Assembly: GCA_038279365.1 (NCBI GenBank)
Contig: JAYODI010000085.1
Span: forward strand, 1 to 24,593
Length of the DNA: 24,593 nt
Direction of reading: 5' to 3'
DNA from: Candidatus Latescibacterota bacterium
Lineage (GTDB): Bacteria > Latescibacterota > UBA2968
The position numbers were made by a program, and so were the translations under genes. A model generated the notes under the pieces. The model did no database searches, had not been told where the DNA came from, and saw only the letters and a program-made list of their open reading frames with translations. Every line of letters begins with the position of its first letter. The stretch's first letter is position 1. Shown here one piece after another: positions 1 through 18,188 of the stretch.

Positions 1-440
<440 letters not shown>

Positions 441-560
441 TGGAGACCGTATGTGAAGTCACTGACGTTCACATATACTCTGTAAGTCAATGCCAAGTTT
501 TGGCATATGCACGTTATTTGGTTTTTAAGAAAACCAGACTTATATGTCTGGTTTTTTAAC

Positions 561-637
561 GGGTCTATAGCTCAGTTGGTTAGAGCGCGCGCCTGATAAG
601 CGCGAGGTCAGTGGTTCAAATCCACTTAGACCCACCA
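561..637 (+). tRNA. tRNA-Ile(GAT)
   Basis: Cloverleaf GGGTCTA...TAGACCC-A-CCA, anticodon GAT at 595-597, T-loop GGTTCAAATCC, encoded CCA. Standard 16S-23S spacer position. Confidence 0.98.
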
Positions 638-659
638 TATTGATAATTTTACATATTTC

Positions 660-735
660 GGGGATATAGCTCAGCTGGGAGAGCACTGCCTTTGCAAGGC
701 AGGGGTCACCGGTTCGATCCCGGTTATCTCCACCA
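660..735 (+). tRNA. tRNA-Ala(TGC)
   Basis: Acceptor stem GGGGATA/TATCTCC with the G3:U70 Ala identity pair, anticodon TGC at 693-695, GGTTCGATCCC T-arm, encoded CCA. Confidence 0.98.
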
Positions 736-769
736 AAAAAGTTTTATTATTTATACTTTTATATATTTA

Positions 770-798
770 GGGGATTTTTCCCCAGTTGTTCTTTGACA
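770..798 (+). promoter_or_regulatory. rrn spacer antitermination element (boxB hairpin + boxA)
   Basis: Hairpin GGGGA-TTTT-TCCCC (770-783) followed by TGTTCTTTGACA (787-798), matching the boxA consensus TGCTCTTTAACA upstream of 23S. Confidence 0.8.
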
Positions 799-906
799 AT
801 TGAATACGGAAGTAGTGGGAAACAATTTTGTAGTGCCAATTTGTTTTTTCAAGCACAGATTCTCAATCTTGCAGAGCACAAACGTGATCTGCTGAAAACC
901 TGTTTT

Positions 907-3929
<3,023 letters not shown>

Positions 3930-4010
3930 AATTTTTAAACTTGTTTTCAGCAGATTGCGTCTGTGCTTTACAAGAAAATTTACCATCTTCCGTATTCAAT
4001 TTGATATTTT

Positions 4011-4128
4011 TCCTGGTGGCTATGGCAGAGGGGTCACACCTCTTCCCTTTCCGAACAGAGAAGTTAAGCCCTCTTGCGCCGATGGTACTGCTTGGGAAAC
4101 CTTGTGGGAGAGTAGGGCGTTGCCAGGA
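4011..4128 (+). rRNA. rrf: 5S rRNA
   Basis: Terminal stem TCCTGGTGGC/GTTGCCAGGA, conserved CCGAAC, GAAGTTAAG, GCCGATGGTA and GAGAGTAGG motifs, ~118 nt. Confidence 0.97.
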
Positions 4129-4198: not shown

Positions 4199-4227
4199 TT
4201 GACAAGTTTACCTAATTTGATAATCAT
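4199..4227 (+). promoter_or_regulatory. Putative sigma70 promoter for the EF-G paralog
   Basis: TTGACA (4199-4204), 17-nt spacer, AATCAT (4222-4227). Lies between the rrn terminator and the GTG start. Confidence 0.5.
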
Positions 4228-4342
4228 GCTGTTCAGTATATTCGCTGTTCTGGTGAAATATTACGGGGAAATAAATTTTGAACATCATTTTAAGAACACT
4301 CTCGTTGTAATTTGTGAAGGCTTGTTCGAAGGAGGGTTGACC

Positions 4343-6427
4343 GTGGGCAAATATGCATCCGATAAGATCCGGAATCTTGTATTGGTTGGGCATAGTGGAA
4401 CTGGGAAGACATCTTTGGGGGAAGCGGCTCTTTTTGTCGCTGGTGTTACCAATCGCTTGGGGTCTGTAGACGAAGGGAATACCGTTTCAGATTTTACGGA
4501 GGCAGAGGTAGCACGGAAAATTTCTCTGAGCACATCTTTGTTGCATTGTGATTGGAAGGGCACAAAGTTTAATATGCTTGATGCACCTGGATATGCAGAT
4601 TTTATTGGCGATACAAAAACCGCTATTTGGGCTGCTGATATTGCAGTTACATTGGTCAATGCGACCAATGGTGTGGAAATTGGCACGGATAAGGCTTTTG
4701 GTTTTGCTGAAGAATTTAAGCGTGCCAGCGTTTTTTTTATTAACCATTTAGACAAAGAATTTGCTGACTATGATAAGGCATTGATGGGGCTTCAAGAGCA
4801 TTTTGGAAATGGTGCAGTTCCATTTCAAATACCTGTGGGTGTGGGCGATGGTTTTCATCAAGTTATTGATATATTAAAAATGAAGTTATTTACGTATGGT
4901 GAAAATGGCAAATCCTCTGCGTCAGATATTCCGCAAGCATATCAAGAGCAAGCAGAAAGTTTGCGAGAGCATATGATTGAAAGTGCCGCAGAAAGTGATG
5001 ATGAATTGACCGAGCGGTATTTAGAAGAAGGGTCCTTGACGGAAGAAGAGATTGCACGCGGCCTAAAAATTGGTATGGTCAATCGCACTTTGTTTCCCAT
5101 TTTTTGTGGGGCCGCTCGAAAATGCATGGGTGTTGATGTGTTTTTGGACTTTTTAGTCACATTTGGACCAAGCCCTGTAGATTTGCCATTGCCAGTTGCC
5201 CATAAAGAAGGTTCGGATGAAGATGTTGTGATTTCGCCAACAGACGAAAGCCCATTGGCGATGGTTGTTTTTAAAACGATTTCAGAATCCGTTGGGGATT
5301 TGTCATTTGTGCGGGTTTTTGCTGGAAAGTTGAATTCGGGTGAAGATGTCTTTAATGCCAATAGGCGTGCCACGGAGCGTATTGGGCAAGTTTATTCAAT
5401 GAATGGTGGTAAACGCGAAGAAATGGACGGCATTGGTGCTGGCGATATCGGTGCTTTGATTAAATTGAAAGATACCCATACGGGCAATACATTGTGCAGC
5501 AAGAATGTGCATCTTGAGATTCCACCGGTTGCGTTTCCACATCCTCTTATTCGGGTGGCTGTGGAGCCCAAATCGCGTGGTGACGAAGATAAGATAGGTA
5601 CCGGATTGCAACATATTCACGAAGAAGATCCCAGTTTTTCGTCGCGTTTTGATCCCGAATTGCATCAAATTATAGCAGAAGGCCAAGGTGAATTGCATTT
5701 GACCGTTGTTTTTGACAAATTAAAAAGTAAATATGGGGTCGATGTGGATTTGGTTGTGCCGCGTATTCCCTATCGGGAAACGATTCAAGGCAGTGCGGAA
5801 GGGCATCATCGACACAAAAAGCAAAGTGGTGGACGTGGGCAATTTGGTGATGCTCATTTGCGTTTGAAACCCTTGCAACGTGGCGGTGGTTTTGAGTTTG
5901 TGGATGCCATTGTTGGTGGCGCTATTCCTGGTAAATTTGTTCCTGCCGTTGAAAAGGGGATTGTTGAAACAATGCAACGCGGTATTTTGGCGGGGTATCC
6001 AGTGGTAGATATTGAAGCAACTGTTTTTGATGGTTCATTTCACCCTGTCGATTCATCCGATATGGCCTTTAAAATGGCAGGTGCACATGCTTTTCAAAAA
6101 GCATTTTTAGATGCCAAGCCGATTTTGTTAGAGCCAATTTACAAAGTCAGCGTGACTGTTCCTGATACATTTATGGGTGATGTGATGGGTGATTTAAATG
6201 GACGACGTGGGCGCATCCAGGGCATGGATCCCGATGGCAATTTCCAAGTGATTCACGCAGAGGTCCCTTTGTCCGATTTGTATAAATATTCCACTTCTTT
6301 GCGTTCTATGACACAAGGAACTGGGGATTATGTGATGGCCTTTTCGCATTATGATCCCGTGCCACACGATGTGGCTCAAAAGATAATTGATGCATCAGAG
6401 CACAGTCGTGAATTGGTTGAAGCATAA
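4343..6427 (+). CDS. fusA: Elongation factor G paralog (EF-G2 / EFG II type), 694 aa
   Basis: GTG start with SD GGAGG at 4331-4335. Five-domain EF-G layout: G1 GHSGTGKTS, G3 DAPGYADF, GQGELHL, YRETI, domain IV KKQSGGRGQFG and HPVDSS, LLEPI, DLNGRRG, LRSMTQG. Divergent G-motifs and location outside the rpsL-rpsG-fusA-tuf operon indicate a paralog. Confidence 0.93.
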   Translation: MGKYASDKIRNLVLVGHSGTGKTSLGEAALFVAGVTNRLGSVDEGNTVSDFTEAEVARKISLSTSLLHCDWKGTKFNMLDAPGYADFIGDTKTAIWAADIAVTLVNATNGVEIGTDKAFGFAEEFKRASVFFINHLDKEFADYDKALMGLQEHFGNGAVPFQIPVGVGDGFHQVIDILKMKLFTYGENGKSSASDIPQAYQEQAESLREHMIESAAESDDELTERYLEEGSLTEEEIARGLKIGMVNRTLFPIFCGAARKCMGVDVFLDFLVTFGPSPVDLPLPVAHKEGSDEDVVISPTDESPLAMVVFKTISESVGDLSFVRVFAGKLNSGEDVFNANRRATERIGQVYSMNGGKREEMDGIGAGDIGALIKLKDTHTGNTLCSKNVHLEIPPVAFPHPLIRVAVEPKSRGDEDKIGTGLQHIHEEDPSFSSRFDPELHQIIAEGQGELHLTVVFDKLKSKYGVDVDLVVPRIPYRETIQGSAEGHHRHKKQSGGRGQFGDAHLRLKPLQRGGGFEFVDAIVGGAIPGKFVPAVEKGIVETMQRGILAGYPVVDIEATVFDGSFHPVDSSDMAFKMAGAHAFQKAFLDAKPILLEPIYKVSVTVPDTFMGDVMGDLNGRRGRIQGMDPDGNFQVIHAEVPLSDLYKYSTSLRSMTQGTGDYVMAFSHYDPVPHDVAQKIIDASEHSRELVEA

Positions 6428-6453
6428 TCTGTTTTGTGAATCGATCAAGGTCT

Positions 6454-6485
6454 TGGGGCACGATTTTCGTGCCCCATTTTTATTT
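6454..6485 (+). terminator. Rho-independent terminator after the EF-G paralog
   Basis: TGGGGCACGA-TTT-TCGTGCCCCA perfect 10-bp stem followed by TTTTTATTT. Confidence 0.85.
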
Positions 6486-6495
6486 GAGGATGTGT

Positions 6496-7068
6496 ATGGC
6501 CAAACGCAAGAAAAGTGTCCGTTTTGTTAGTCGTGGAGGGGACAAACTCGATGGTGCATTGGATGTTTTTCAATTGGATGTAACTGGACAAAATGCGGCT
6601 GATTTAGGCGCAAATGTGGGAGGATTTACCGACTGCTTGCTTCAACGAGGTGCCCGTTGTGTTTATTCTGTTGACACGGGGTATGGTGTTTTAGATTGGA
6701 AACTTCGGCAAGATGATCGGGTTGTTGTGATGGAGCGAATGAATGCCCTGCACGTTTCTTTGCCAGAGAAAGTTTTTTTGGTGGTGGTGGATGTGGGCTG
6801 GACGCCTTTGGTTCGTATTGTGCCTGTAGCGTTAAATTTGGTGAGGGCCGATGGGTATGTGGTGGCGCTTTTAAAGCCCCAATACGAGGCCAATGACGAT
6901 GAGTTGCAAAACGGTGTGGTGCTGGCCAATTGTGTTGAACGTGTGGTTGGGCGTGTCGTTGAGGCACTTCAAGATATGGGTATCCAAGTTCTCAAACAAA
7001 CACCATCCTCTGTTGCGGGCAGCGGTGGGAATCAAGAGCATTTGTTGTTGCTAAAACACGCCGTTTAA
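6496..7068 (+). CDS. tlyA: TlyA-family rRNA 2'-O-methyltransferase lacking the N-terminal S4 domain, 190 aa
   Basis: SD GAGGA 6486-6490, ATG 6496. Motifs FVSRGGDKL, DLGANVGGFTDCLLQRGA, VDTGYG, LKPQYE, GNQE (K-D-K-E tetrad of the RrmJ/FtsJ fold). Confidence 0.88.
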   Translation: MAKRKKSVRFVSRGGDKLDGALDVFQLDVTGQNAADLGANVGGFTDCLLQRGARCVYSVDTGYGVLDWKLRQDDRVVVMERMNALHVSLPEKVFLVVVDVGWTPLVRIVPVALNLVRADGYVVALLKPQYEANDDELQNGVVLANCVERVVGRVVEALQDMGIQVLKQTPSSVAGSGGNQEHLLLLKHAV

Positions 7069-8679: not shown

Positions 8680-9276
8680 ATGATTGCCTACTTAGATGGT
8701 CGCTTGGCCGAAAAACATCCCACGCATTTTGTGGTTGATGTGGGGGGCGTGGGGTTTCATATTCAGGTGCCATTGTCGAGTTACGAGGCCATTGATGCCG
8801 TAGATGGCAATGTGCGGATTTTAACACATTTGCATGTGCGTGAAGATATCATGGCCTTGTATGGGTTTGCTACGGTTGCCGAACGTGATCTGTTTGAGTT
8901 GTTGATAGGTGTGTCCGGCATTGGCCCACCTATGGCACTCAAAATATTGTCTGGCACGCCCATTGCCGATTTTAAAAGAATGGTTGCCGCAGAAGATTCT
9001 AAGGGATTGACACGCATAAAAGGTGTGGGCCCCAAACTTGCACAACGATTGGTCTTAGAAATTCGAGACAAAATAGATACCATTGCACCTGAAGAATTTC
9101 GCCCCGATGCAATGGGTTCGGCAGATCCTGATATTTTGAATGAGGCCACTGCGGCATTGGCGGGTTTGGGTACCAACCCTGTTCAAGCGCGCAAAGTGGT
9201 TGCGATGGTTTTGCAGGAAATGGGTGGTGAGGCAACCATTGAACAAGTGATCAAAAAAGCGTTAAGAAGCATATAG
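8680..9276 (+). CDS. ruvA: Holliday junction branch migration protein RuvA
   Basis: MIAYLDG, DVGGVGF, HVRED..LYGF, HhH motifs VSGIGP and IKGVGPKLAQR. Confidence 0.97.
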   Translation: MIAYLDGRLAEKHPTHFVVDVGGVGFHIQVPLSSYEAIDAVDGNVRILTHLHVREDIMALYGFATVAERDLFELLIGVSGIGPPMALKILSGTPIADFKRMVAAEDSKGLTRIKGVGPKLAQRLVLEIRDKIDTIAPEEFRPDAMGSADPDILNEATAALAGLGTNPVQARKVVAMVLQEMGGEATIEQVIKKALRSI

Positions 9277-9339
9277 CTGGCCATTTTGTATCTATTGCAA
9301 CTGTTATGTTTGGTATGGGTTTTATAGGGTAATGCTTTT

Positions 9340-10365
9340 ATGAATGACAGAACAAATGATCCCAATCATCAAGATGGGGATGTTCTTGAGTTGGATCAAC
9401 GTCTTCGCCCCATTCGGTTTCAAGATTTTACTGGGCAAGAAAAAGTAAAAGAACATCTGCTTATTGCAGTAGAAGCAGCACGCCATCGTGGGGAGGCAAT
9501 GGATCATGTGTTGTTGCATGGCCCTCCTGGGCTTGGTAAGACCACCTTGGCTTCTGTGATCGCTCATGAATTGGGTGTTGAAGCGCAATTGACTTCAGGG
9601 CCTGTTTTGGAGCGCCCTGCTGATTTGGCTGGTATCTTGACCAACCTCAATGAAAAAGATGTGTTGGTGATTGATGAAATTCATCGTATGAATCGCGTGG
9701 TTGAAGAGCATTTGTATTCTGCCATGGAAGATTTTACTTTGGATATTATGATTGACAGTGGTCCCAGTGCACGGTCGTATCAAATTCCTTTGGAACCGTT
9801 TACTTTGGTGGGCGCAACGACCCGACTGGGTTTGCTTACAGCGCCTATGCGTTCGCGGTTTGGTATTATTGAACGGTTAGATTTTTATACACAAGAGGAA
9901 TTAAAAACGATAGTGATACGTGCTGCAAAGATTTTGGATATTGATGTGGATGAAGATGGGGCCGATGAAATTGCACGCAGGTCACGTGGAACAGCACGCA
10001 TAGCTGGTAGGCAATTGTCGCGTGGGCGCGACTATGCGCAAGCGCGTGCCGATGGTGTAATCACGAAAGATGTGGCCATTCGCGCACTGGAGCTTTTGGG
10101 TGTCGATCAATTGGGGTTGGATGAAATGGATCGTCGGCTTTTGGAAACGCTGATCGATAAATTTGGTGGGGGCCCTGTTGGTTTGAACAATTTGTCGGCT
10201 GCATTGAGCGAAGAAAGTGATACTCTTGAAGAAGTTTATGAGCCTTATTTGATACAGCAAGGCTTTTTGGTGCGTACACCACGGGGGCGGCAAGCCACCG
10301 AAAGAGCTTATTTGCATTTGGGTAAAACGCCACCCGAAGGTGGTGTGCAGAGTTCATTGTTTTAG
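9340..10365 (+). CDS. ruvB: Holliday junction branch migration ATPase RuvB
   Basis: LRP..FTGQ, Walker [10 protein letters not shown], Walker [36 protein letters not shown]. Confidence 0.98.
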
Positions 10366-10386
10366 AATATTTTGGGTGATCTGAAT

Positions 10387-11088
10387 ATGTTGCTTTTAAG
10401 CATTGAAACATCCACACCTGTTTGTGGGGTTGCGCTTGTTGATGATGGTCAGGTTTGTGCCCAATATACTTTAGATTTGGGCATTCATCATTCGACACAT
10501 TTGTTTCCCATGGTCGAGCGTGTTTTGGCAGATCGCCAAGCCGATGTCACAGACTTAGATGGCCTTGCCGTGGCTTCTGGCCCTGGTTCTTTTACGGGTT
10601 TGAGAATTGGGATGGCATCAGCCAAAGCGTTGTGCTTGTCGGCCAATGTACCATTGGTTGGTGTATCGACATTGGCAGGCATGGCGTATTCTATTGGCTG
10701 TGAGGGTATCCCTGTTTGTGCGATGTTGGATGCGCGACGCGATCAAGTATATGCGGGCATTTACGAATGGAAAGAGGAGGCATTTGTTGCATCGGTGCCA
10801 GATTTTGCCGTGAACATCGAAGATTTATTAGACCTTTTGCCGCACCCTGCGTTGTTTATTGGCGATGGCGCGTGGGCGCATCATCATACCATTAAAGCCC
10901 GTTTGGGTAAAAAAGCATATTTTGCAGGACGGGAATTGGGGCGTCCAAATGCGGGTGCGATTGCCTTGTTGGGATGTATTCAGCTTCATCTGGGAAAGCA
11001 GGTCGATATCGATACATTTGAGCCACAATATCTTCGTGCTTCTCAGGCAGAAAAAGTGCTTGAAGCCCGTTTGGCCAAAGAATCATGA
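10387..11088 (+). CDS. tsaB: tRNA threonylcarbamoyladenosine biosynthesis protein TsaB, 233 aa
   Basis: LSIETS, HS..L.P, GPGSFTGLRIG, DARRDQVY, EPQYLR. ATG 10387 after GGGTGA. Confidence 0.95.
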   Translation: MLLLSIETSTPVCGVALVDDGQVCAQYTLDLGIHHSTHLFPMVERVLADRQADVTDLDGLAVASGPGSFTGLRIGMASAKALCLSANVPLVGVSTLAGMAYSIGCEGIPVCAMLDARRDQVYAGIYEWKEEAFVASVPDFAVNIEDLLDLLPHPALFIGDGAWAHHHTIKARLGKKAYFAGRELGRPNAGAIALLGCIQLHLGKQVDIDTFEPQYLRASQAEKVLEARLAKES

Positions 11089-11585
11089 CGGCAGAAGGGG
11101 ACAAAGTTCTGCTTGAGCCTATGCAGATTTGCCATTTGACAGGGGTTGTAGAAATTGAAAGAATGGTGTTTTCCAATCCTTGGCAACACGGGGATTTTAA
11201 ATCTGCGCTTGAGCGTGAAAATGCATATTGTCGTATTGTTGTTGTGGATGGGCAATTATTGGGTTATGTGATAGGTTTTTTTATAAACAAAGAATTTCAT
11301 CTTGCAGATTTTTCGATTCACCCCAACCAGCAACGCAAAGGTTTTGGGCAGCGAGTTTTAGACATCTTATGTAGCGAATTACATGATTTGTCGCAGGTGA
11401 TTTCTTTGGAAGTGCGCATGTCTAATGTGGCAGCACTCGAGCTTTATAAAAAAAATGGCTTTCAAACAATGGCCATTCGGAAAAATTATTATACCCATCC
11501 ACAAGAAGATGCTTTGGTGATGTTAAAACCCTTGCATGGCAAGTTATCCGATTGGATTACGGAAGCATTGTTGGATACATCATAA
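11085..11585 (+). CDS. rimI: Ribosomal-protein alanine N-acetyltransferase RimI (GNAT)
   Basis: IE..FSNPW, QRKGFG acetyl-CoA motif, LEVRMSN..A..LY...GF, RKNYY..EDALVM. ATGA overlap with the tsaB stop. Confidence 0.92.
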   Translation: MTAEGDKVLLEPMQICHLTGVVEIERMVFSNPWQHGDFKSALERENAYCRIVVVDGQLLGYVIGFFINKEFHLADFSIHPNQQRKGFGQRVLDILCSELHDLSQVISLEVRMSNVAALELYKKNGFQTMAIRKNYYTHPQEDALVMLKPLHGKLSDWITEALLDTS

Positions 11586-11599
11586 ATTGGTGAAATTAC

Positions 11600-11628
11600 T
11601 TGACAAATAGTCAAATAACGTGTATCAT
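11600..11628 (+). promoter_or_regulatory. sigma70 promoter upstream of the leader ORF and holB-metG operon
   Basis: Perfect -35 TTGACA (11600-11605), 17-nt spacer, -10 TATCAT (11623-11628). Confidence 0.8.
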
Positions 11629-11678
11629 TTTTGCATCTTTTGGCTGTATTTTCATGTGTATTTAGGAGTATGTTTTTT

Positions 11679-11783
11679 ATGCCAAGCACAATTGACTATA
11701 TGATGCATATGATGATGCCCTTGCATACACCTGTAAGGGCTATGCGTGTTGTTGGCATCCATGTTAGAAAGGTATGTGTATAA
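11679..11783 (+). CDS. Putative Met-rich leader peptide, 34 aa: MPSTIDYMMHMMMPLHTPVRAMRVVGIHVRKVCV
   Basis: SD AGGAG 11664-11668, ATG 11679 (in-frame upstream ATG at 11670), five ATG codons within codons 8-13, TAA at 11781-11783. Lies between a promoter and a terminator. Too short for the supplied ORF track. Confidence 0.7.
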   Translation: MPSTIDYMMHMMMPLHTPVRAMRVVGIHVRKVCV

Positions 11784-11804
11784 ACAGATATTCCGGGCAG
11801 TTTG

Positions 11805-11857
11805 ACATGTTTAAAAAGCCGTTGGAATGCACTGTTCCAACGGCTTTTTAAACATGT
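11805..11857 (+). terminator. Terminator/attenuator hairpin upstream of holB
   Basis: Perfect 23-bp inverted repeat ACATGTTTAAAAAGCCGTTGGAA (11805-11827) / TTCCAACGGCTTTTTAAACATGT (11835-11857), 7-nt loop, GC-rich core followed by TTTTT. Confidence 0.85.
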
Positions 11858-11880
11858 AGGGATAAAAAAGAGGTGATGGT

Positions 11881-12927
11881 TTGGCTGCTGTAATAGGACA
11901 AACGCGTGCGACGCATTTTTTAAGTGGGCTTATAGAAAAAGAACGTGTGCCACATGCCTTGTTGTTGTGTGGTGCCAATGGTACGGGGGCTGCTGCTGTG
12001 GCACTGGCATTGGCGCGTGTATTGCACTGCGAAAATGCGAACAGTGTGCCGTGTTTGCACTGTGTAGGGTGCCGAAAAACTGCAGGACTCAATCATCCTG
12101 ACTTTTCAATTTTATTTCCATTTGCCTCCCGCATAAAAGAAGAAGCCCAACAAATAACCTTGCGACAACTGGTCGAAGATCCTTATGGATATGAATTGCC
12201 CGATGACCATGCAACCATTGCTTTAGAACAAATTAGAGGATTACAGCGGCAGTTTGCTTATGGTGCCTACCAAGGTGCTTGGCGAACTGCCGTTATCATG
12301 CATGCCGAACGTATGCGCCCCGAATCTTCTAATGCTTTGTTAAAAACTTTGGAAGAACCGCCTCCGCAATCATTAATGATCTTGGTGACGGCCCACGTAG
12401 AAGCTTTGTTGCCAACCATTGTATCTCGGTGTCAATTTTTGAAACTGCCACCTTTATTGTCTGAAGATATTGAACAAGCTTTGGTTGATAAAGGCCTGGA
12501 TGCCACAATGGCCAGAACGGTTTCAAGATCGTGCGGAGGAAATTTTCGCCTTGCGTTGGAAATGCAAACGGGCAATTTGGTTGAATCACAAGATCGTGCA
12601 TTCCGTTTTTTAGATGCATTGGTCTGGGGAGCAGATGGGCTTACGTATGCGGCACTTGAGCAGTTGGCCTCAGATCGACAGGCAGTATTTGATGTGATCA
12701 AACATGCCGAAGTGTGGCTTCGTGATGCCCTTTTGTTGCAAGCTGGTATGGAAACAAATGTGGTTCATGCACAGCGCATAGATGATGTGAGACGGTTGGC
12801 TGAGGCATTTGATGTTTGGCGCCTGAGCGAAACCATTGCCCAATTAGAGTCTTTGCGTGAAATGAATATGCGAAATGTCAATTTACAACTGAGCTTACTA
12901 TCTCTGTGGCGAAGTATCAGGGGATAG
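11881..12927 (+). CDS. holB: DNA polymerase III delta' subunit, 348 aa
   Basis: TTG start with SD GAGGTG. VIGQ, PHALLLCG, Zn module C..PC..C..C, NHPD, SNALLKTLEEPP, LLPTIVSRCQ. Degenerate Walker A as expected for delta'. Confidence 0.93.
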   Translation: MAAVIGQTRATHFLSGLIEKERVPHALLLCGANGTGAAAVALALARVLHCENANSVPCLHCVGCRKTAGLNHPDFSILFPFASRIKEEAQQITLRQLVEDPYGYELPDDHATIALEQIRGLQRQFAYGAYQGAWRTAVIMHAERMRPESSNALLKTLEEPPPQSLMILVTAHVEALLPTIVSRCQFLKLPPLLSEDIEQALVDKGLDATMARTVSRSCGGNFRLALEMQTGNLVESQDRAFRFLDALVWGADGLTYAALEQLASDRQAVFDVIKHAEVWLRDALLLQAGMETNVVHAQRIDDVRRLAEAFDVWRLSETIAQLESLREMNMRNVNLQLSLLSLWRSIRG

Positions 12928-12951
12928 GCGGTTTGATGAAAAGAGAATCCT

Positions 12952-14877
12952 ATGGGAACATTTTATATTACCACACCGATTTATTATGTCAATGATGAGC
13001 CCCATATTGGGCATGCCTATACAACCATTATGGCTGATGTGTTGGCGCGCTACCATCGCTTGGCTGGTGATGATGTTTTGTTTTTGACAGGTACGGATGA
13101 ACATGGGCAAAAAGTAGATGAAGCTGCGGCCAAACGCGATATGCCCCCGCAACAACATGCAGATGAGATGGTTGTGCGTTTTAAAGATTTGTGGAAGATT
13201 TTGAACATTTCGAATGATGACTTTATCCGTACAACAGAAGATCGCCATAAAAAAGTGGTTACCGAAATTCTTCAACGTATTTACGATGCGGGCGAAATAT
13301 ATGCTGCGGATTATGAAGGTTGGTATTGTATTCCCGACGAACGATTTTGGACCGAAAAGGACTTGGTAGATGGCAACTGCCCTGATTGTGGTCGGCCCGT
13401 TGTGAAAATTACCGAGAAGAATTACTTTTTTAGGATGAGTAAATACCAAGATTGGCTGATTGAACACATACAAACACATCCTGATTTTATTCGGCCAGAA
13501 AAAAGACGAAATGAAATTTTAGGGTTTTTGCGTCAACCACTGGGTGACTTGTGTATTTCTCGCCCAAAGACAAGGTTGAGTTGGGGCATTGAACTCCCCT
13601 TTGACAAAGACTATGTGTGTTATGTGTGGTTTGATGCCTTAATTAATTATATTACGGCACCGGGTTATTTGTCTGATGAGACCCGTTTTAATCATTGGTG
13701 GCCTGCATCTTGTCATTTGATTGGCAAAGATATTTTGACCACGCACTGTGTGTATTGGCCAACTATGCTCAAAGCGATGGGCGTGGCTTTGCCCGAGACT
13801 GTGATGGGGCATGGATTTTGGTTGGTGGATGATACCAAAATGGGTAAGTCATTGGGCAATGCCATTAAACCACTGGATTTGGCCGCCAAATATGGTGTGG
13901 ACGCATTCCGTTATTTCTTGGTGCGAGAAATGACTTTGGGGCAAGACAGTAATTTTAGCGAGTTTGCTTTTGTACAACGCTATAACACCGAATTGGCCAA
14001 TGAGTTGGGAAATTTGTTGAATCGGTCTGTGGTGATGGCCGACCGTTATTTAAACGGTGTGATTCCCCAAATTGATACATCTCACCCTGCGCTTACAGGT
14101 TTGAAAACACAAAGTGCCCAAACGTTGGAGGCTGTTGCACAGGCCATTCACGACTTAAATCCAAATGCATTATTAGATGCGGTATGGCAGTTGGTACGCG
14201 AGGCCAATCGGTTTGCTGAAGTGCAAGCACCCTGGCATTTGGCCAAAGATGACAACAGGCGTGAAGAATTGCACGTGACCATTTATGGTTTATTAGAAAC
14301 GATGCGCCAATTGGCTGTTACCTTATTTCCTGTTATGCCGACAAAGGCTTTAGAAATTTGGCATCAAATTGGTGCCAAGGGATCCCCAGAAGAGATAAAT
14401 GTTGCAGAGTTGAAACAGTGGGGCGGTTTAGCTGCCAATGGTGTGGTTAAGCCAGGTGACCCTGTTTTTCCACGTATTGAGGAGGTTGTTGTGTCTGAAG
14501 AAACAAAAACAACAGAACCCGTTAAAGAAGCACAACCTGAAAAACCCAAAGAAAACTTGATTTCTTTTAAGGAATTTCAAAAACTTAAACTGCGCGTGGC
14601 ACGAATTGAGTCGGCAGAAAAGGTAGATGGTGCAGATCGGCTTTTGAAATTGCAGATTAGTTTGGGAGAAGAAAAACGCCAATTGGTAGCAGGGATCGCA
14701 CAACATTATGAGACAGATGCTTTGATTGGCAAACAGATCGTAATTGTTGCCAACTTAGAACCTGCAAAAATTCGTGGTGTTGAATCTCAAGGGATGTTGT
14801 TGGCCGCGTCCGATGACAGTGGGTTAACCCTTTTAACACCCGAAGGTGATATTGCCGATGGTGCAGAGGTGCGATAG
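12952..14877 (+). CDS. metG: Methionine--tRNA ligase with C-terminal tRNA-binding (Trbp111/EMAP-like) domain, 641 aa
   Basis: FYITTPIYYVN..PHIGH, TGTDEHGQK, FIRTT, YVWFDALINY, IGKDI, KMGKSLGN. C-terminal OB fold with NLEPAKIRGVESQGM. Confidence 0.98.
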   Translation: MGTFYITTPIYYVNDEPHIGHAYTTIMADVLARYHRLAGDDVLFLTGTDEHGQKVDEAAAKRDMPPQQHADEMVVRFKDLWKILNISNDDFIRTTEDRHKKVVTEILQRIYDAGEIYAADYEGWYCIPDERFWTEKDLVDGNCPDCGRPVVKITEKNYFFRMSKYQDWLIEHIQTHPDFIRPEKRRNEILGFLRQPLGDLCISRPKTRLSWGIELPFDKDYVCYVWFDALINYITAPGYLSDETRFNHWWPASCHLIGKDILTTHCVYWPTMLKAMGVALPETVMGHGFWLVDDTKMGKSLGNAIKPLDLAAKYGVDAFRYFLVREMTLGQDSNFSEFAFVQRYNTELANELGNLLNRSVVMADRYLNGVIPQIDTSHPALTGLKTQSAQTLEAVAQAIHDLNPNALLDAVWQLVREANRFAEVQAPWHLAKDDNRREELHVTIYGLLETMRQLAVTLFPVMPTKALEIWHQIGAKGSPEEINVAELKQWGGLAANGVVKPGDPVFPRIEEVVVSEETKTTEPVKEAQPEKPKENLISFKEFQKLKLRVARIESAEKVDGADRLLKLQISLGEEKRQLVAGIAQHYETDALIGKQIVIVANLEPAKIRGVESQGMLLAASDDSGLTLLTPEGDIADGAEVR

Positions 14878-15645
14878 ATGATGTTGGTAGATACACATGC
14901 CCATTTGTCTTTTGAAAAGTTTGACCAAGATCTACAAGATGTTCTGGATCGAGCAAAAGAGGTGGGTGTAACGCGTATTGTTGATGTGGGAACCAACATG
15001 GAAACAAGTTTGAAGGCTGTTTTTTTGTCTGAATCTGCTGATGGCGTTTTTGCTTCGGTAGGATTTCATCCAGCAGATTCAGACAAAGCTGACACACACG
15101 GTCTGAGTCAACTTCATACGTTATTAAAAAAAGAAAACGTGGTTGCTGTTGGTGAAACAGGTTTGGATTTTTATAGAGATTATGTGGCATACGACATACA
15201 AGAGAAATCATTTCGGGCGCATATCCGATTGGCAAAAGATTTTGGGTTGCCTTTGATTATACACAGCAGAGCCGCTGAAGAAAGGGTGCTTGAGGTGTTA
15301 GCAGAAGAAGGTGCTCAAGATGTGGGAGGGGTTTTGCATTGTTTTGCTGGCAGTGATCAAGAAGCCCAGCGTGCGTTGGACCTAAACTTTCATTTGGGTT
15401 TTGGCGGTATTGTCACATTTAAAAATTCACCCGCATTGGAGGTTGCACTTCGCGTGCCTGCTAATCGGTTGTTATTGGAAACGGATTGCCCTTTTTTGGC
15501 TCCTGTGCCCAAACGTGGCAAACGCAATGAACCTGCTTACGTTTTGCATGTAGCCGAGTATTTGGCTGAGCATGGTGATGTTGCATTTGATCAACTTTGT
15601 CAGCAAACCACGGCCAACGCAGTGTCGTTATTTGGTCTATCTTAG
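14878..15645 (+). CDS. tatD: TatD-family deoxyribonuclease
   Basis: DTHAHL, GFHP, VGETGLDF, IIHSR, LHCF, LLETDCPFLAP, RNEP. Abuts the metG stop. Confidence 0.95.
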   Translation: MMLVDTHAHLSFEKFDQDLQDVLDRAKEVGVTRIVDVGTNMETSLKAVFLSESADGVFASVGFHPADSDKADTHGLSQLHTLLKKENVVAVGETGLDFYRDYVAYDIQEKSFRAHIRLAKDFGLPLIIHSRAAEERVLEVLAEEGAQDVGGVLHCFAGSDQEAQRALDLNFHLGFGGIVTFKNSPALEVALRVPANRLLLETDCPFLAPVPKRGKRNEPAYVLHVAEYLAEHGDVAFDQLCQQTTANAVSLFGLS

Positions 15646-15654
15646 GGGTTGGAT

Positions 15655-16455
15655 GTGAAGGCAAAAAAGTCTCTTGGGCAGCATTTTTTAATTGATGGTC
15701 ATTCGATTAGACAAATAATAGATGAAGCTCAGATTGGCACAGATGATTTGGTGGTTGAAATTGGTCCAGGAAGAGGGGCTTTGACCGAATTTTTGGTGCG
15801 CGTTGCGGGTCAAGTTGTGGCTATTGAAATAGATAGAGATCTTTGTGGTTTGCTGAATAGAACGTTTGTAGGCCATAAAAATTTTCGTTTGATTGCCAGT
15901 GACGTATTAGATGTTGATTTGGTGCAATTGGTGAAAGAGTCGGGTTTTTCACGTGCCATTTTAATTGGAAATCTACCCTATCAAATTACGGGTATTTTGA
16001 TGCGACAAATTCTCGAAGCGCGTGATGCTTTTCAAAAAGCAATTATTATGGTGCAAAGAGAGGTGGCGCGCCGTTTAACGGCCAACGCAGGCAATAAAGA
16101 CTATGGTGTTTTAACAACGGTTACACAGATAAATTGTGTGCCCCAATTGTTGTTTGATTTGCCCCCGTCCTTTTTTGATCCCCCCCCACAAGTACACTCT
16201 TCGGCTGTGCGGTTGCAGTTTGATTGTGATCCGCTTTATTCGGTTGTTGATCGCGATCTGTTTTTGAAGGTGGTGCAGGCCGCTTTTCAACAAAGACGTA
16301 AGATGTTGCGCAATACCTTGCGCCCTTTATTTGGAGATGATGTTCTGCTGGGTGAAATATTGGGAGAGGTTGGTATCGAGGCGACATTGCGAGCAGAAGC
16401 CGTTTCGGTAGATGGGTTTGAAAAAATTGCACGTGCTTGGCAAAAAAGGCGTTAA
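15655..16455 (+). CDS. rsmA: 16S rRNA m6,2A1518/A1519 dimethyltransferase RsmA/KsgA
   Basis: KKSLGQHFL, VEIGPGRGALT, EIDRD, GNLPYQIT, MVQREVA, F.PPP.V.S, FQQRRKMLRN. Start GTG 15655 or TTG 15649. Confidence 0.96.
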   Translation: MKAKKSLGQHFLIDGHSIRQIIDEAQIGTDDLVVEIGPGRGALTEFLVRVAGQVVAIEIDRDLCGLLNRTFVGHKNFRLIASDVLDVDLVQLVKESGFSRAILIGNLPYQITGILMRQILEARDAFQKAIIMVQREVARRLTANAGNKDYGVLTTVTQINCVPQLLFDLPPSFFDPPPQVHSSAVRLQFDCDPLYSVVDRDLFLKVVQAAFQQRRKMLRNTLRPLFGDDVLLGEILGEVGIEATLRAEAVSVDGFEKIARAWQKRR

Positions 16456-16466
16456 AGGAGTATATA

Positions 16467-18188
16467 TTGGCCAGATCTATGCTTGATCGTCGCGTTGAAC
16501 CGCGCTGGGTTTTTGCAGAAAATCCCGATGGTGATATTTTGGCAAAAACCAAGTTGGAATTGAATATTCCTACTGTTATGGCCAAGATTTTGATTAATCG
16601 GGGCATTGCCGATGTTCAGGCTGTTCGAGACTTTCTGGAACCGGCATTGGAACATTTAATAGATCCTTTTTTGCTAAAAGATATGGATTTGGCCGTAGAC
16701 CGCATATGGCAGGCGATTGATGCTGGTGAAAAAATCATGGTTCATGGCGATTATGATGTGGATGGCGTGACGGGCACATCTGTATTGGTGCGCACATTAT
16801 CTGCTTTGGGTGCTGATATTACGTTTTATATTCCTCACCGATTGGAACAAGGTTATGGCATCTCTCACCAAGGAATTGATTGGGGAATTGCGAGTGGTGT
16901 GACGGTATTGATTTCTGTGGATTGTGGTATTACAGCCATAGATGAAGTGCTGTATGCAAAGAAACAAGGCATGGACGTGGTGATTACAGATCACCATCAG
17001 CCCAGTAGTTTACCCGAAGCCGTTGCTGTTATTAACCCCAAACGCGACGATTGTCCTTACCCATTTAAAGAATTGCCAGGTGTGGCATTGGCGTTTAAAT
17101 TGGCAGAAGCGGTGTATCGGAAACGCAATTGTGACCTTGAGCCTGTATATGAAAATTTAGATTTGGTGGCATTGGGCTGTGCTGCAGATATTGTGCCATT
17201 GGTGGGAGAGAACCGTATTTTGGTTATGCATGGATTGCGGCGTTTACGCCAGACGACCAATAAGGGTTTTATCGCATTGTTGAAGAATGTCGGGTTGTGG
17301 GGGCGTGAGTTGGGGACGGGGCAATTGATTTTTGTTTTGGCGCCGCGTATTAATGCTTTGGGGCGCTTAGATAGTGCGATGGGAGCTGTTGCAATGTTAA
17401 CGACAGATGATGCACGTGAGGCCCAAAACATTGCAAAGGCATTGGAGACACAAAACGTAAAGCGTCGAAAAATTGATAGTCAAATGCTGTCTGAGGCGCT
17501 GACTATGGTTGAAGAACAGGTTGATGTGTCTAAAGATTGTGCCGTGGTTTTAGCGTCAACGTCATGGCATCCTGGTGTCATTGGTATTGTGGCTACGCGC
17601 ATTGCTGAAAAAATGCATTTGCCAACGGTGCTGATTTCTATTGATGGAGATTGTGGTAAAGGGTCGGCACGTAGTATTCCTAATTTTGATTTGTTTCAAG
17701 CTTTGTCCTTGTGCCTTGAACACCTCATGGCTTTTGGTGGCCATAAATATGCTGCAGGTTTGACCATTGGTGCTGACCTGGTGGATACATTTCGCACACA
17801 TTTTTTGAAAATTGCTCAAGAATTAATGCATCAAGAATCTATGATCCCGTGTATCGATATTGAAAGTGAGCTGTCTTTGGATCAAATTGATATGCGATTG
17901 GTAAATGTGTTAAAGCGTTTTGCACCTTTTGGGCCAGAAAATCCACGTCCTGTGATGGTATCCAGAAACGTGGAGGTGGTTGGAGCCCCCTTGCAAGTGG
18001 GGAACAATCACTTGCGTTTTAATGCGCGACAAAACGGTCGTGTCTTTGACTGTATTGGGTTTAATTTGGGGCATTTGGCATATCGATTGGCACCGGGTGA
18101 GTCCAATTTGGATATGGCTTATGTGATTGAAGAAAATGAATGGCGAGGCCGAAAAGGAATTCAGTTGCGTATAAAAGACCTGCGATAA
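16467..18188 (+). CDS. recJ: Single-stranded-DNA-specific exonuclease RecJ
   Basis: [74 protein letters not shown] start 6 nt after SD AAGGAG (alternative ATG 16479). Confidence 0.97.

Follow-up and report, generated by a model that had tools for sequence, protein, structure and literature searches.

A conserved leader, most likely akin to a leader-peptide attenuator, ahead of holB-metG in a Latescibacterota clade

A conserved leader, undescribed before, precedes the holB-metG genes in a clade of Candidatus Latescibacterota and is most likely leader-peptide-attenuator-like. The leader was analyzed in a 24,593-nucleotide (nt) stretch of DNA, hereafter the window (GenBank assembly GCA_038279365.1, contig JAYODI010000085.1, positions 1 to 24,593 of the forward strand), in which a promoter, a short open reading frame (ORF) with clustered methionine codons and a terminator-like hairpin are followed by the genes for the DNA polymerase III delta' subunit (holB) and methionine--tRNA ligase (metG). 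The leader combines this architecture with conservation among related genomes, linkage to holB-metG, a frame that stays open without amino-acid constraint, an enrichment of Met codons and a compatibility with alternative RNA pairings. The leader hairpin probably throttles holB-metG, and we consider it rather probable that the leader works as a translation-coupled attenuator of some kind. Methionine sensing by the leader is plausible. The more specific proposal, a ribosome-mediated transcription attenuator that senses charged elongator Met-tRNA and is conserved in the clade, is put forward tentatively, as a reading that falls short of being probable.

The known regulators are T-boxes for metG and metS, and SAM riboswitches or MetJ for met genes. 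Ribosome-mediated attenuation is the textbook mechanism for operons related to Trp, His, Phe, Leu, Thr and Ile/Val, and for a few aminoacyl-tRNA synthetase genes (pheST, trpS, leuS, and hisS). Full-text literature searches found no attenuator with a Met-codon leader and no control of metG by a leader ORF. When the whole window was searched against Rfam at the gathering score, rRNA and tRNA were the only matches. A permissive search of positions 11500-11950 (E up to 10) gave 17 weak matches, all below their gathering scores, of which 12 lay over the hairpin (microRNA, VR-RNA, and rliD tails). The T-box covariance model and the SAM riboswitch models matched neither the window at the gathering score nor 11500-11950 at E up to 10, and the amino-acid operon leader families of Rfam (Thr, Trp, His, Leu, and Phe) were absent from the matches.

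Anatomy and conservation of the leader

The features of the leader and the two genes that follow it are as follows (positions in the window).

11600..11628, + strand: sigma-70-type promoter (TTGACA 11600-11605, 17-nt spacer, TATCAT 11623-11628)
11662..11797, + strand: long closing helix of the RNAalifold consensus, pairing 11662-11687 (Shine-Dalgarno sequence and start codon) with 11772-11797 (ORF end, stop, and post-stop)
11664..11668, + strand: Shine-Dalgarno (SD) sequence AGGAG of the leader ORF, read directly from the sequence
11679..11783, + strand: leader ORF MPSTIDYMMHMMMPLHTPVRAMRVVGIHVRKVCV, 34 codons plus stop (ATG 11679, TAA 11781-11783), 7 Met
11700..11717, + strand: Met-codon cluster ATG ATG CAT ATG ATG ATG, candidate control codons, read directly from the sequence
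11716..11741, + strand: internal hairpin P1, GCCCUUGCA / UGUAAGGGC, starting from the final Met codon; a candidate for segments 1 and 2 that may also act as a pause hairpin
11789..11798, + strand: post-stop segment D, UAUUCCGGGC, a candidate antiterminator strand that resembles the terminator 3' arm and pairs with the SD or with the terminator 5' arm
11805..11857, + strand: terminator-like hairpin with a perfect 23-bp stem (arms 11805-11827 / 11835-11857, 7-nt spacer)
11881..12927, + strand: holB (DNA polymerase III delta'), TTG start, SD GAGGTG 11870-11875 (NCBIfam TIGR00678, E=1.9e-52)
12952..14877, + strand: metG (methionine--tRNA ligase with C-terminal tRNA-binding domain; NCBIfam NF008900, E=3.9e-262)

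The promoter matches the consensus at 11 of 12 positions and was the top-ranked promoter-like site within 9000-16500 in a consensus scan. A first-pass annotation, made from the sequence alone, had named this promoter, the AGGAG, the 34-codon ORF with its seven Met codons and run of ATG codons, and holB followed 24 nt later by metG; all of these were confirmed at the positions listed. The ORF starts 51 nt past the -10 box. An extra in-frame ATG lies at 11670, 1 nt past the SD, and it is ATG 11679 instead that relatives conserve.

The hairpin begins 21 nt past the leader stop and is the sole perfect inverted repeat of at least 20 nt in the window. Its predicted energy is -33.2 kcal/mol in the window. 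The 225-nt leader as a whole folds at -79.6 kcal/mol (z = -5.4), and none of 200 shuffled sequences folded equally well. The U-run (11845-11849) sits within the extended stem, where it is paired with AAAAA 11813-11817; the terminator proper would thus be the 10-bp G+C-rich core (11818-11827 / 11835-11844) followed by UUUUU. In the window, 23 nt separate the hairpin from holB, and fewer do so in two of the related leaders (L001 and L002, described below). The promoter scan saw no promoter-like site in this interval in the window, L001 or L002; a separate promoter at this place had been named at the first pass as an observation that would speak against attenuation. Downstream of metG follow tatD, rsmA, recJ, ilvE, and proC, with gaps of 31 nt or less.

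Related loci were collected by a MetG scan over one genome per species, which gave 110 pattern matches and 23 confirmed loci. The closest loci are titled Candidatus Latescibacterota (MetG identity of 84, 79, 78, and 68%). Adjacent hairpin arms were found in five of the 23 loci (L004, L023, L001, L002, and L015), with no further copy in the loci or the window. In all five, the -35 box is identical and a -10 box of TATCAT or TATTAT stands at equal spacing. The short ORF is retained in L004, L023, L001, and L002, whereas L015 has the promoter and the hairpin alone. Hence, the attenuator-like layout first noted in the window is a conserved unit of holB-metG in the window, L004, L023, L001, and L002. 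The accompanying expectation of a conserved Met-rich ORF plus terminator in relatives held for the ORF and hairpin of four loci, but the Met run proved variable and L015 lacks the ORF.

In L004 and L023, rimI is separated from holB by a gap of ~295 nt, which carries a promoter, an ORF and a hairpin of the window type. In L014, 30 nt lie between rimI and holB, and there is no leader. The genes upstream of the leader are on the opposite strand in L001 (glycosyltransferase, Cpn10, and IS110 transposase) and L002 (AAT and CBM9 proteins), and the holB SD stands directly 3' of the hairpin in both. Since the leader is kept despite these changed upstream genes, it belongs to holB-metG. Moreover, its promoter is the sole promoter-like site in the 700-1000 nt scanned in L001 and L002; hence, holB-metG has to be read through the hairpin there. 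The region upstream of the leader is rearranged in the L001/L002 lineage. The IS110-family transposase gene of L001 (1321-2403, minus strand) lies ~300 nt ahead of the leader promoter, and a direct repeat of ~45 nt, seen by eye, occurs in two copies upstream of the leader in L002 (2390-2600).

At L015:2801-2900, the leader promoter is followed after ~25 nt by the hairpin core with a different loop and then by holB, with no ORF in between. This hairpin is bracketed by an outer helix, AAUCGGU / ACCGGUU. In the same locus, which belongs to a complete-chromosome record, metG contains an in-frame stop in a linker (5528-5552; PVFPRI followed by the stop, versus PVFPRIEE in the window) and is thereby split; a core of 509 aa and a separate C-terminal-domain ORF of 125 aa result, both in one frame.

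The identities of the leader parts and of holB to the window, given for L004 / L023 / L001 / L002 / L015, are as follows.

Terminator 37-nt core: 0.97 / 1.00 / 0.86 / 0.81 / 0.76
Promoter block: 0.89 / 0.84 / 0.70 / 0.68 / 0.65
Leader ORF: 0.77 / 0.60 / 0.51 / 0.52 / none
holB DNA: 0.74 / 0.73 / 0.58 / 0.57 / 0.56

The hairpin and the promoter are better conserved than the genes, and the ORF is no better conserved than the genes. The idea that the hairpin is a dispersed repeat was rejected, the arms being single-copy in the window and confined to the leader in the related loci.

The short ORF and its methionine codons

In each of the five ORF-bearing leaders (the window, L004, L023, L001, and L002), a GGAG or GGA motif stands 7-10 nt ahead of the conserved ATG, from which the frame continues without interruption to a stop codon at the equivalent position. 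Three leaders have an ORF of 34 codons and two have one of 31; the lengths thus differ between lineages by 9 nt, a multiple of three. The other two + frames contain 2-4 stops in the three A+T-rich leaders. The odds of an open frame in shuffled sequences were 0.105, 0.086, 0.121, 0.414, and 0.478 per leader, values that are not independent because only three lineages are represented.

The window peptide is predicted as a 34-aa gene in a public protein collection (P0001), in which a relative (P0002) is 88% identical. A profile of six peptides, searched against 1.84 billion representatives, gave 5 matches at E <=0.001, all of 31 or 34 aa. With 7 sequences added by cluster look-up, a total of 15 distinct peptides of 31 or 34 aa was obtained. 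Peptide identity between lineages is 29-32%. By codon position, the leader ORF of the window differs from that of L004 at 9/12/6 sites (16 of 18 changed codons non-synonymous) and from that of L023 at 20/16/10 sites (24 of 28 non-synonymous); a third pairwise comparison gave 19/9/9. In none of these comparisons is the third codon position the most variable one. Pfam and NCBIfam searches of eight leader peptides gave no match at E up to 10. Judged from these substitutions, the pattern fits a leader ORF, or a structured RNA left open by chance, and is unlike that of a functional micropeptide; the peptide appears to be without amino-acid constraint, as expected of a leader-peptide attenuator.

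Relative to residue frequencies in 15 window proteins, Met shows the strongest enrichment of any residue in the 15 peptides, at 4.55x. Its codons cluster in the six positions ahead of a conserved Pro codon, where P1 begins. The Met counts in this stretch are 5,5,4,3,3,1,2,2,2,1,1,1,2,3,3 in the 15 peptides, so that at least one Met is present in 15/15 and at least two are present in 11/15. The variants of the stretch include MMHMMM, MMYMTL, RVHHTM, IPQMAM, and IPQMAT. ATG occurs seven times in the leader frame of the window versus once in each of the other two frames, and five times versus two and none in L004. The number of internal in-frame ATGs exceeds that of shuffled sequences in four of the five leaders (P = 0.0001 in the window, and 0.0046, 0.0037, and 0.0031); the six internal in-frame ATGs of the window were attained by ~1 in 10,000 among 20,000 shuffles. 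Several ATGs fall in predicted helices.

L023, the sole ORF-bearing locus with a broken metG, has the fewest leader Met codons (one in the stretch), a single case on a metagenome-assembled contig. Its metG remnant (L023:4001-4666) lies directly past holB. It lacks MetG residues 1-416, in-frame stops and a frameshift interrupt the part corresponding to residues 417 to ~500, and the C-terminal tRNA-binding domain is intact as a 147-aa ORF (4223-4666) highly similar to that of the window. The remnant reflects either genuine decay, which has left a stand-alone Trbp111-like protein, or misassembly of this contig of a metagenome-assembled genome. The coincidence of few Met codons and a broken metG is suggestive, a lead and not a test.

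Leader structure, proposed mechanism and competing explanations

Two independent alignments led to one RNAalifold consensus, which consists of the helix joining the SD and start codon to the post-stop region, P1, and the terminator. In this consensus the SD pairs with post-stop positions 11790-11797, and in four leaders the start AUG is paired with a CAU triplet near the ORF end. Three of the 13 pairs of the closing helix have changes on both sides. P1 (11716-11724 with 11733-11741) is present in 5/5 leaders, with two-sided changes that preserve pairing. On alignment A3, 86.3% of the cells of the consensus are paired versus 38.9-44.6% with slid partners, and 8 pairs have changes on both sides versus 1-3 in the slid controls, a comparison that is favoured by the structure having been derived from the same sequences. 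In the terminator helix, 17 of 24 pairs never vary and compensatory changes number 0. No variation was seen in the terminator 5' arm (T5, AAAAGCCGUUGGAAUG) among genomes with HolB identities of only 49-76%, as would be expected if T5 must pair with several partners.

Two candidate partners of T5 were found. Pairing of the P1 3' arm with T5 (7 pairs) holds in 85.7% of cells over the five leaders versus 8.6-68.6% in slid controls. Pairing of D, a near copy of the terminator 3' arm, with T5 (10 pairs) holds in 77.6% versus 34.7-59.2%, and its C-to-U substitutions keep G·U pairs. The local D:T5 hairpin has a predicted energy of -10.8 kcal/mol in the window and -6.0 kcal/mol in L004. A duplex scan of T5 against the upstream leader gave local minima at the P1 3' arm in 5/5 leaders and at the stop/post-stop region in 5/5. 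The data are compatible with a hypothetical ribosome-dependent switch between these structures.

Termination itself, the structural switch and its signal are what we infer from these features, and the proposed mechanism runs as follows. Transcription would start ~7 nt past TATCAT, and the short ORF would be translated as RNA polymerase nears the hairpin at 11805-11857. Without translation, the SD/start region would pair with the ORF end and the post-stop region, P1 would form, T5 would be free and the terminator would form. A ribosome at the stop codon (11781) would cover D, given the usual footprint of ~12-15 nt downstream, and the terminator would again form. A ribosome slowed on the Met codons at 11700-11717 would open P1 and leave D uncovered. 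The freed P1 3' arm (AAGGGCUAU) and/or D (UUCCGGGC) could then pair with T5 (AAAAGCCGUUGGAA), so that no terminator would form and holB-metG would be transcribed. The best-fitting signal would be the supply of charged elongator Met-tRNA, which would create a MetRS feedback loop like that of pheM-pheST. It is possible, and we say so with reserve, that this is the first methionine-sensing leader-ORF attenuator, in which the speed of the ribosome over a few Met codons gates an invariant terminator into the holB-metG operon, with its leading genes for the clamp-loader subunit delta' and MetRS. In that case, the promoter-plus-hairpin form of L015 would be either an ancestral module that received the ORF domain or a derived loss.

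A number of observations weigh against this mechanism. With respect to the signal, His (3.3x), Pro (2.4x), and Val (2.1x) are enriched along with Met. The MMHMMM run is confined to the nearest relatives of the window (the window itself and P0002, with TMHMMM in P0005), and 4/15 peptides, that of L023 among them, have a single Met in the stretch. The in-frame ATG count of L023 is at the chance level (P = 0.51), and RNA pairing could, on the predicted fold, explain part of the conservation of the ATGs. The picture of a pure Met sensor is complicated by initiation on the leader ORF, which itself depends on MetRS through fMet-tRNA. With respect to the switch, the best upstream partner of T5 (-9.5 to -11.2 kcal/mol) is no better than that found in shuffled upstream sequences (median -10.0 to -11.6 kcal/mol). 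Folding with a ribosome mask, in which the leader was free, carried a ribosome stalled at either of two positions, carried a stalled and an initiating ribosome, or had a ribosome at the stop, gave no consistent change in the modelled pairing of T5 over the five states (0.62, 0.62, 0.63, 0.65, and 0.64 in the window), and the terminator, at -22 to -33 kcal/mol, is far more stable than any candidate antiterminator. With respect to termination, few U residues make up the U-run (window, 5; L001, 4; L002, 3), and a simple terminator scan left the hairpin unlisted in the window, L001, and L002; the call of a terminator rests, therefore, on anatomy and conservation. L015 indicates that the hairpin can exist without a translational sensor. 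Finally, the leaders for which both DNA and an ORF were available number five and come from three lineages, a small sample. Two claims of the first-pass annotation are accordingly kept in part. Its perfect 23-bp stem 21 nt past the stop stands, with the U-tract lying inside the extended stem. Its Met sensing by ribosome stalling is favoured by the enrichment and clustering of Met 5' of P1, but the Met run is not conserved, and the upstream complementarity of T5 is at chance level and its modelled pairing shows no dependence on ribosome position.

Two alternatives come next, each of them unlikely. According to the first, the leader is a translation-coupled attenuator unspecific for Met, in which readthrough reports the supply of ribosomes or charged tRNA and tunes a long housekeeping operon. 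This would account for the retention of the ORF with its SD, start, and stop alongside a Met count that ranges from 1 to 5, and for the enrichment of Val, His, and Pro. It also suits an operon that is long and mixed (holB, metG, tatD, rsmA, recJ, ilvE, and proC, with gaps <=31 nt) and a consensus fold in which the ORF end sequesters the SD and start, limiting translation to a co-transcriptional window. On the other hand, Met is the residue most enriched, it occupies a fixed place beside P1 in 15/15 peptides, and it matches the downstream metG; and an unspecific sensor is equally without a demonstrated switch in the T5 shuffles and the ribosome-mask folding.

According to the second, likewise improbable, the hairpin is constitutive and the ORF incidental, the hairpin being a leaky terminator that sets a constant low level, an element for RNA processing or stability, or a site for a sequence-specific protein. 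L015, with its promoter, hairpin and holB but no ORF, fits this explanation. So does the conservation of the hairpin sequence, including part of the loop, far beyond the need of a plain terminator (17/24 pairs invariant, 0 two-sided changes), and so does an antiterminator that is not significant. In the window, L004, L023, and L015, the hairpin could also end ruvB-tsaB-rimI transcripts; it is nevertheless kept in L001 and L002, which have no co-directional upstream gene. A constitutive hairpin, moreover, leaves unexplained the conservation of the ORF frame, SD, start, and stop in three lineages, the conserved fold of the ORF domain with its compensatory changes, and the pile-up of Met codons beside P1.

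There is little likelihood that the leader is an independent small gene, that is, a transcript of ~215 nt acting as a small RNA and/or encoding a functional 34-aa peptide (e.g., Met/His-rich and metal-binding), with holB-metG expressed separately. It does have its own promoter and terminator, and the ORF is predicted as a gene in public collections. However, no promoter-like site exists between the hairpin and holB, which are 23 nt apart in the window and closer in L001 and L002. The peptides share 29-32% identity between lineages with substitutions that are not protein-like, the Met/His motif is not conserved, and no Pfam or NCBIfam family is matched; the Cu/Ag-binding micropeptide that had been offered at the first pass as an alternative is not supported, given this motif and these substitutions. 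The leader may have a role in trans in addition to any role in cis; attenuated leader RNAs and leader peptides of other bacteria are reported to be capable of this (peTrpL/rnTrpL).

Least likely of all is a nascent-peptide sensor of the TnaC or SpeFL kind, in which the leader peptide arrests the ribosome with Met or a derivative in the exit tunnel: a length of 31-34 aa resembling that of such peptides, a semi-conserved core M-P...V-R-A-M-x-V-V with the ending (E/K)-V-H-G and several third-position-only changes in the core P, A, and V codons would fit it, but the conserved positions fall within RNA helices (P1, and the pairing of the start codon with the CAU triplet near the ORF end) and the peptide is poorly conserved overall, whereas arrest peptides normally keep their sequence.

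Three further candidates were tried and rejected. Val sensing was considered because of ilvE in the operon and a conserved VV pair; Val is enriched only 2.1x, and its codons overlap in position with the pairing partner of the Met codons. Pairing of T5 with a 5'-end segment (UCUUUUGGCU) occurs in every ribosome state in the window, L001, and L002, and is mismatched in L004 and L023. A mimic of the tRNA-Met anticodon for autoregulation by MetRS was set aside as unsupported, because neither the hairpin loops (UGCACUG, UGUUCCG) nor the P1 loops are conserved and no loop was seen by eye to present CAU.

Known systems, genomic context and significance

Of the known systems, pheM-pheST of E. coli is the closest in layout, with a short ORF of cognate codons near the promoter, an intrinsic terminator and a synthetase gene, and feedback by charged tRNA would match it here. 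The leader of holB-metG differs in that the amino acid is Met, the first gene is holB and not the synthetase gene, the ORF is longer (31-34 codons) with 1-5 control codons that are not strictly conserved, the antiterminator is a candidate only, and the host belongs to an uncultivated phylum. The trp and his attenuators of E. coli and Salmonella likewise place their control codons at or just before the 5' arm of the first hairpin, here P1, and three states would be expected in both cases. Sequestration of the ribosome-binding site by a distal leader segment has a counterpart in the trp leader. In contrast to trp and his, ~75 nt lie between the P1 3' arm and T5, so that the loop of a simple 2:3 hairpin would be very large. 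A second candidate strand, D, lies past the stop, and the terminator is unusually long and stable (23 bp, -33 kcal/mol). T-box leaders and SAM riboswitches resemble the present leader in lying 5' of Met-related genes with an intrinsic terminator at the end; unlike them, it has no Rfam match and carries a conserved ORF that looks translated.

Segments with several pairing partners are described as unusually conserved in classical attenuators (PMC1262725), a property that T5 would share. The same source predicts that trpS and leuS of Streptomyces have classical attenuators, in the manner of pheST in gamma-proteobacteria, and states that the methionine operons of Actinobacteria yielded no upstream RNA structure (PMC1262725). 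In bacilli, hisS paralogs are preceded by a His leader peptide (PMC2965389).

The gene order of the window is rRNA operon, fusA, tlyA-like, yebC, ruvC, ruvA, ruvB, tsaB, rimI, leader, holB, metG, tatD, rsmA, recJ, ilvE, and proC; the genes flanking the leader are on the + strand throughout, with short gaps. Further features were seen outside the leader. Positions 1-4128 hold the 3' end of the 16S rRNA gene, spacer tRNA genes (561-634 and 660-732), and the 23S and 5S rRNA genes. The 23S gene is bracketed by a 39-nt inverted repeat with 82% complementarity (867-905 / 3937-3975), as expected of a processing stem. The listed TTG start of the EF-G ORF (4199-6427) is ~50 codons ahead of the profile match, which runs from residue 51 onward; the true start is probably further downstream. 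The TlyA-like methyltransferase (6436-7068, 210 aa) matches the TlyA profile over positions 52-228 only, with a score of 140.8 bits, below the family cut-off of 185.8 bits, and seems to be without its N-terminal part. A perfect 17-nt inverted repeat with a 30-nt spacer (15024-15087) lies within the tatD coding region.

Whatever its signal, the leader is a new conserved cis-regulatory RNA absent from Rfam. The invariance of T5, despite HolB identity of ~50%, makes it a handy marker of the element and offers a testable constraint of pairing with several partners. If the methionine reading is true, a Met-codon leader before metG would add the missing amino acid to ribosome-mediated attenuation and would show this mechanism at work in a candidate phylum without cultured members. 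Met is special in this respect in that MetRS also charges the initiator tRNA that starts the leader ORF, and separating initiation from elongation would be instructive. In Latescibacterota, the charging of Met-tRNA would then set the level of its own synthetase together with that of replication and rRNA-maturation genes.

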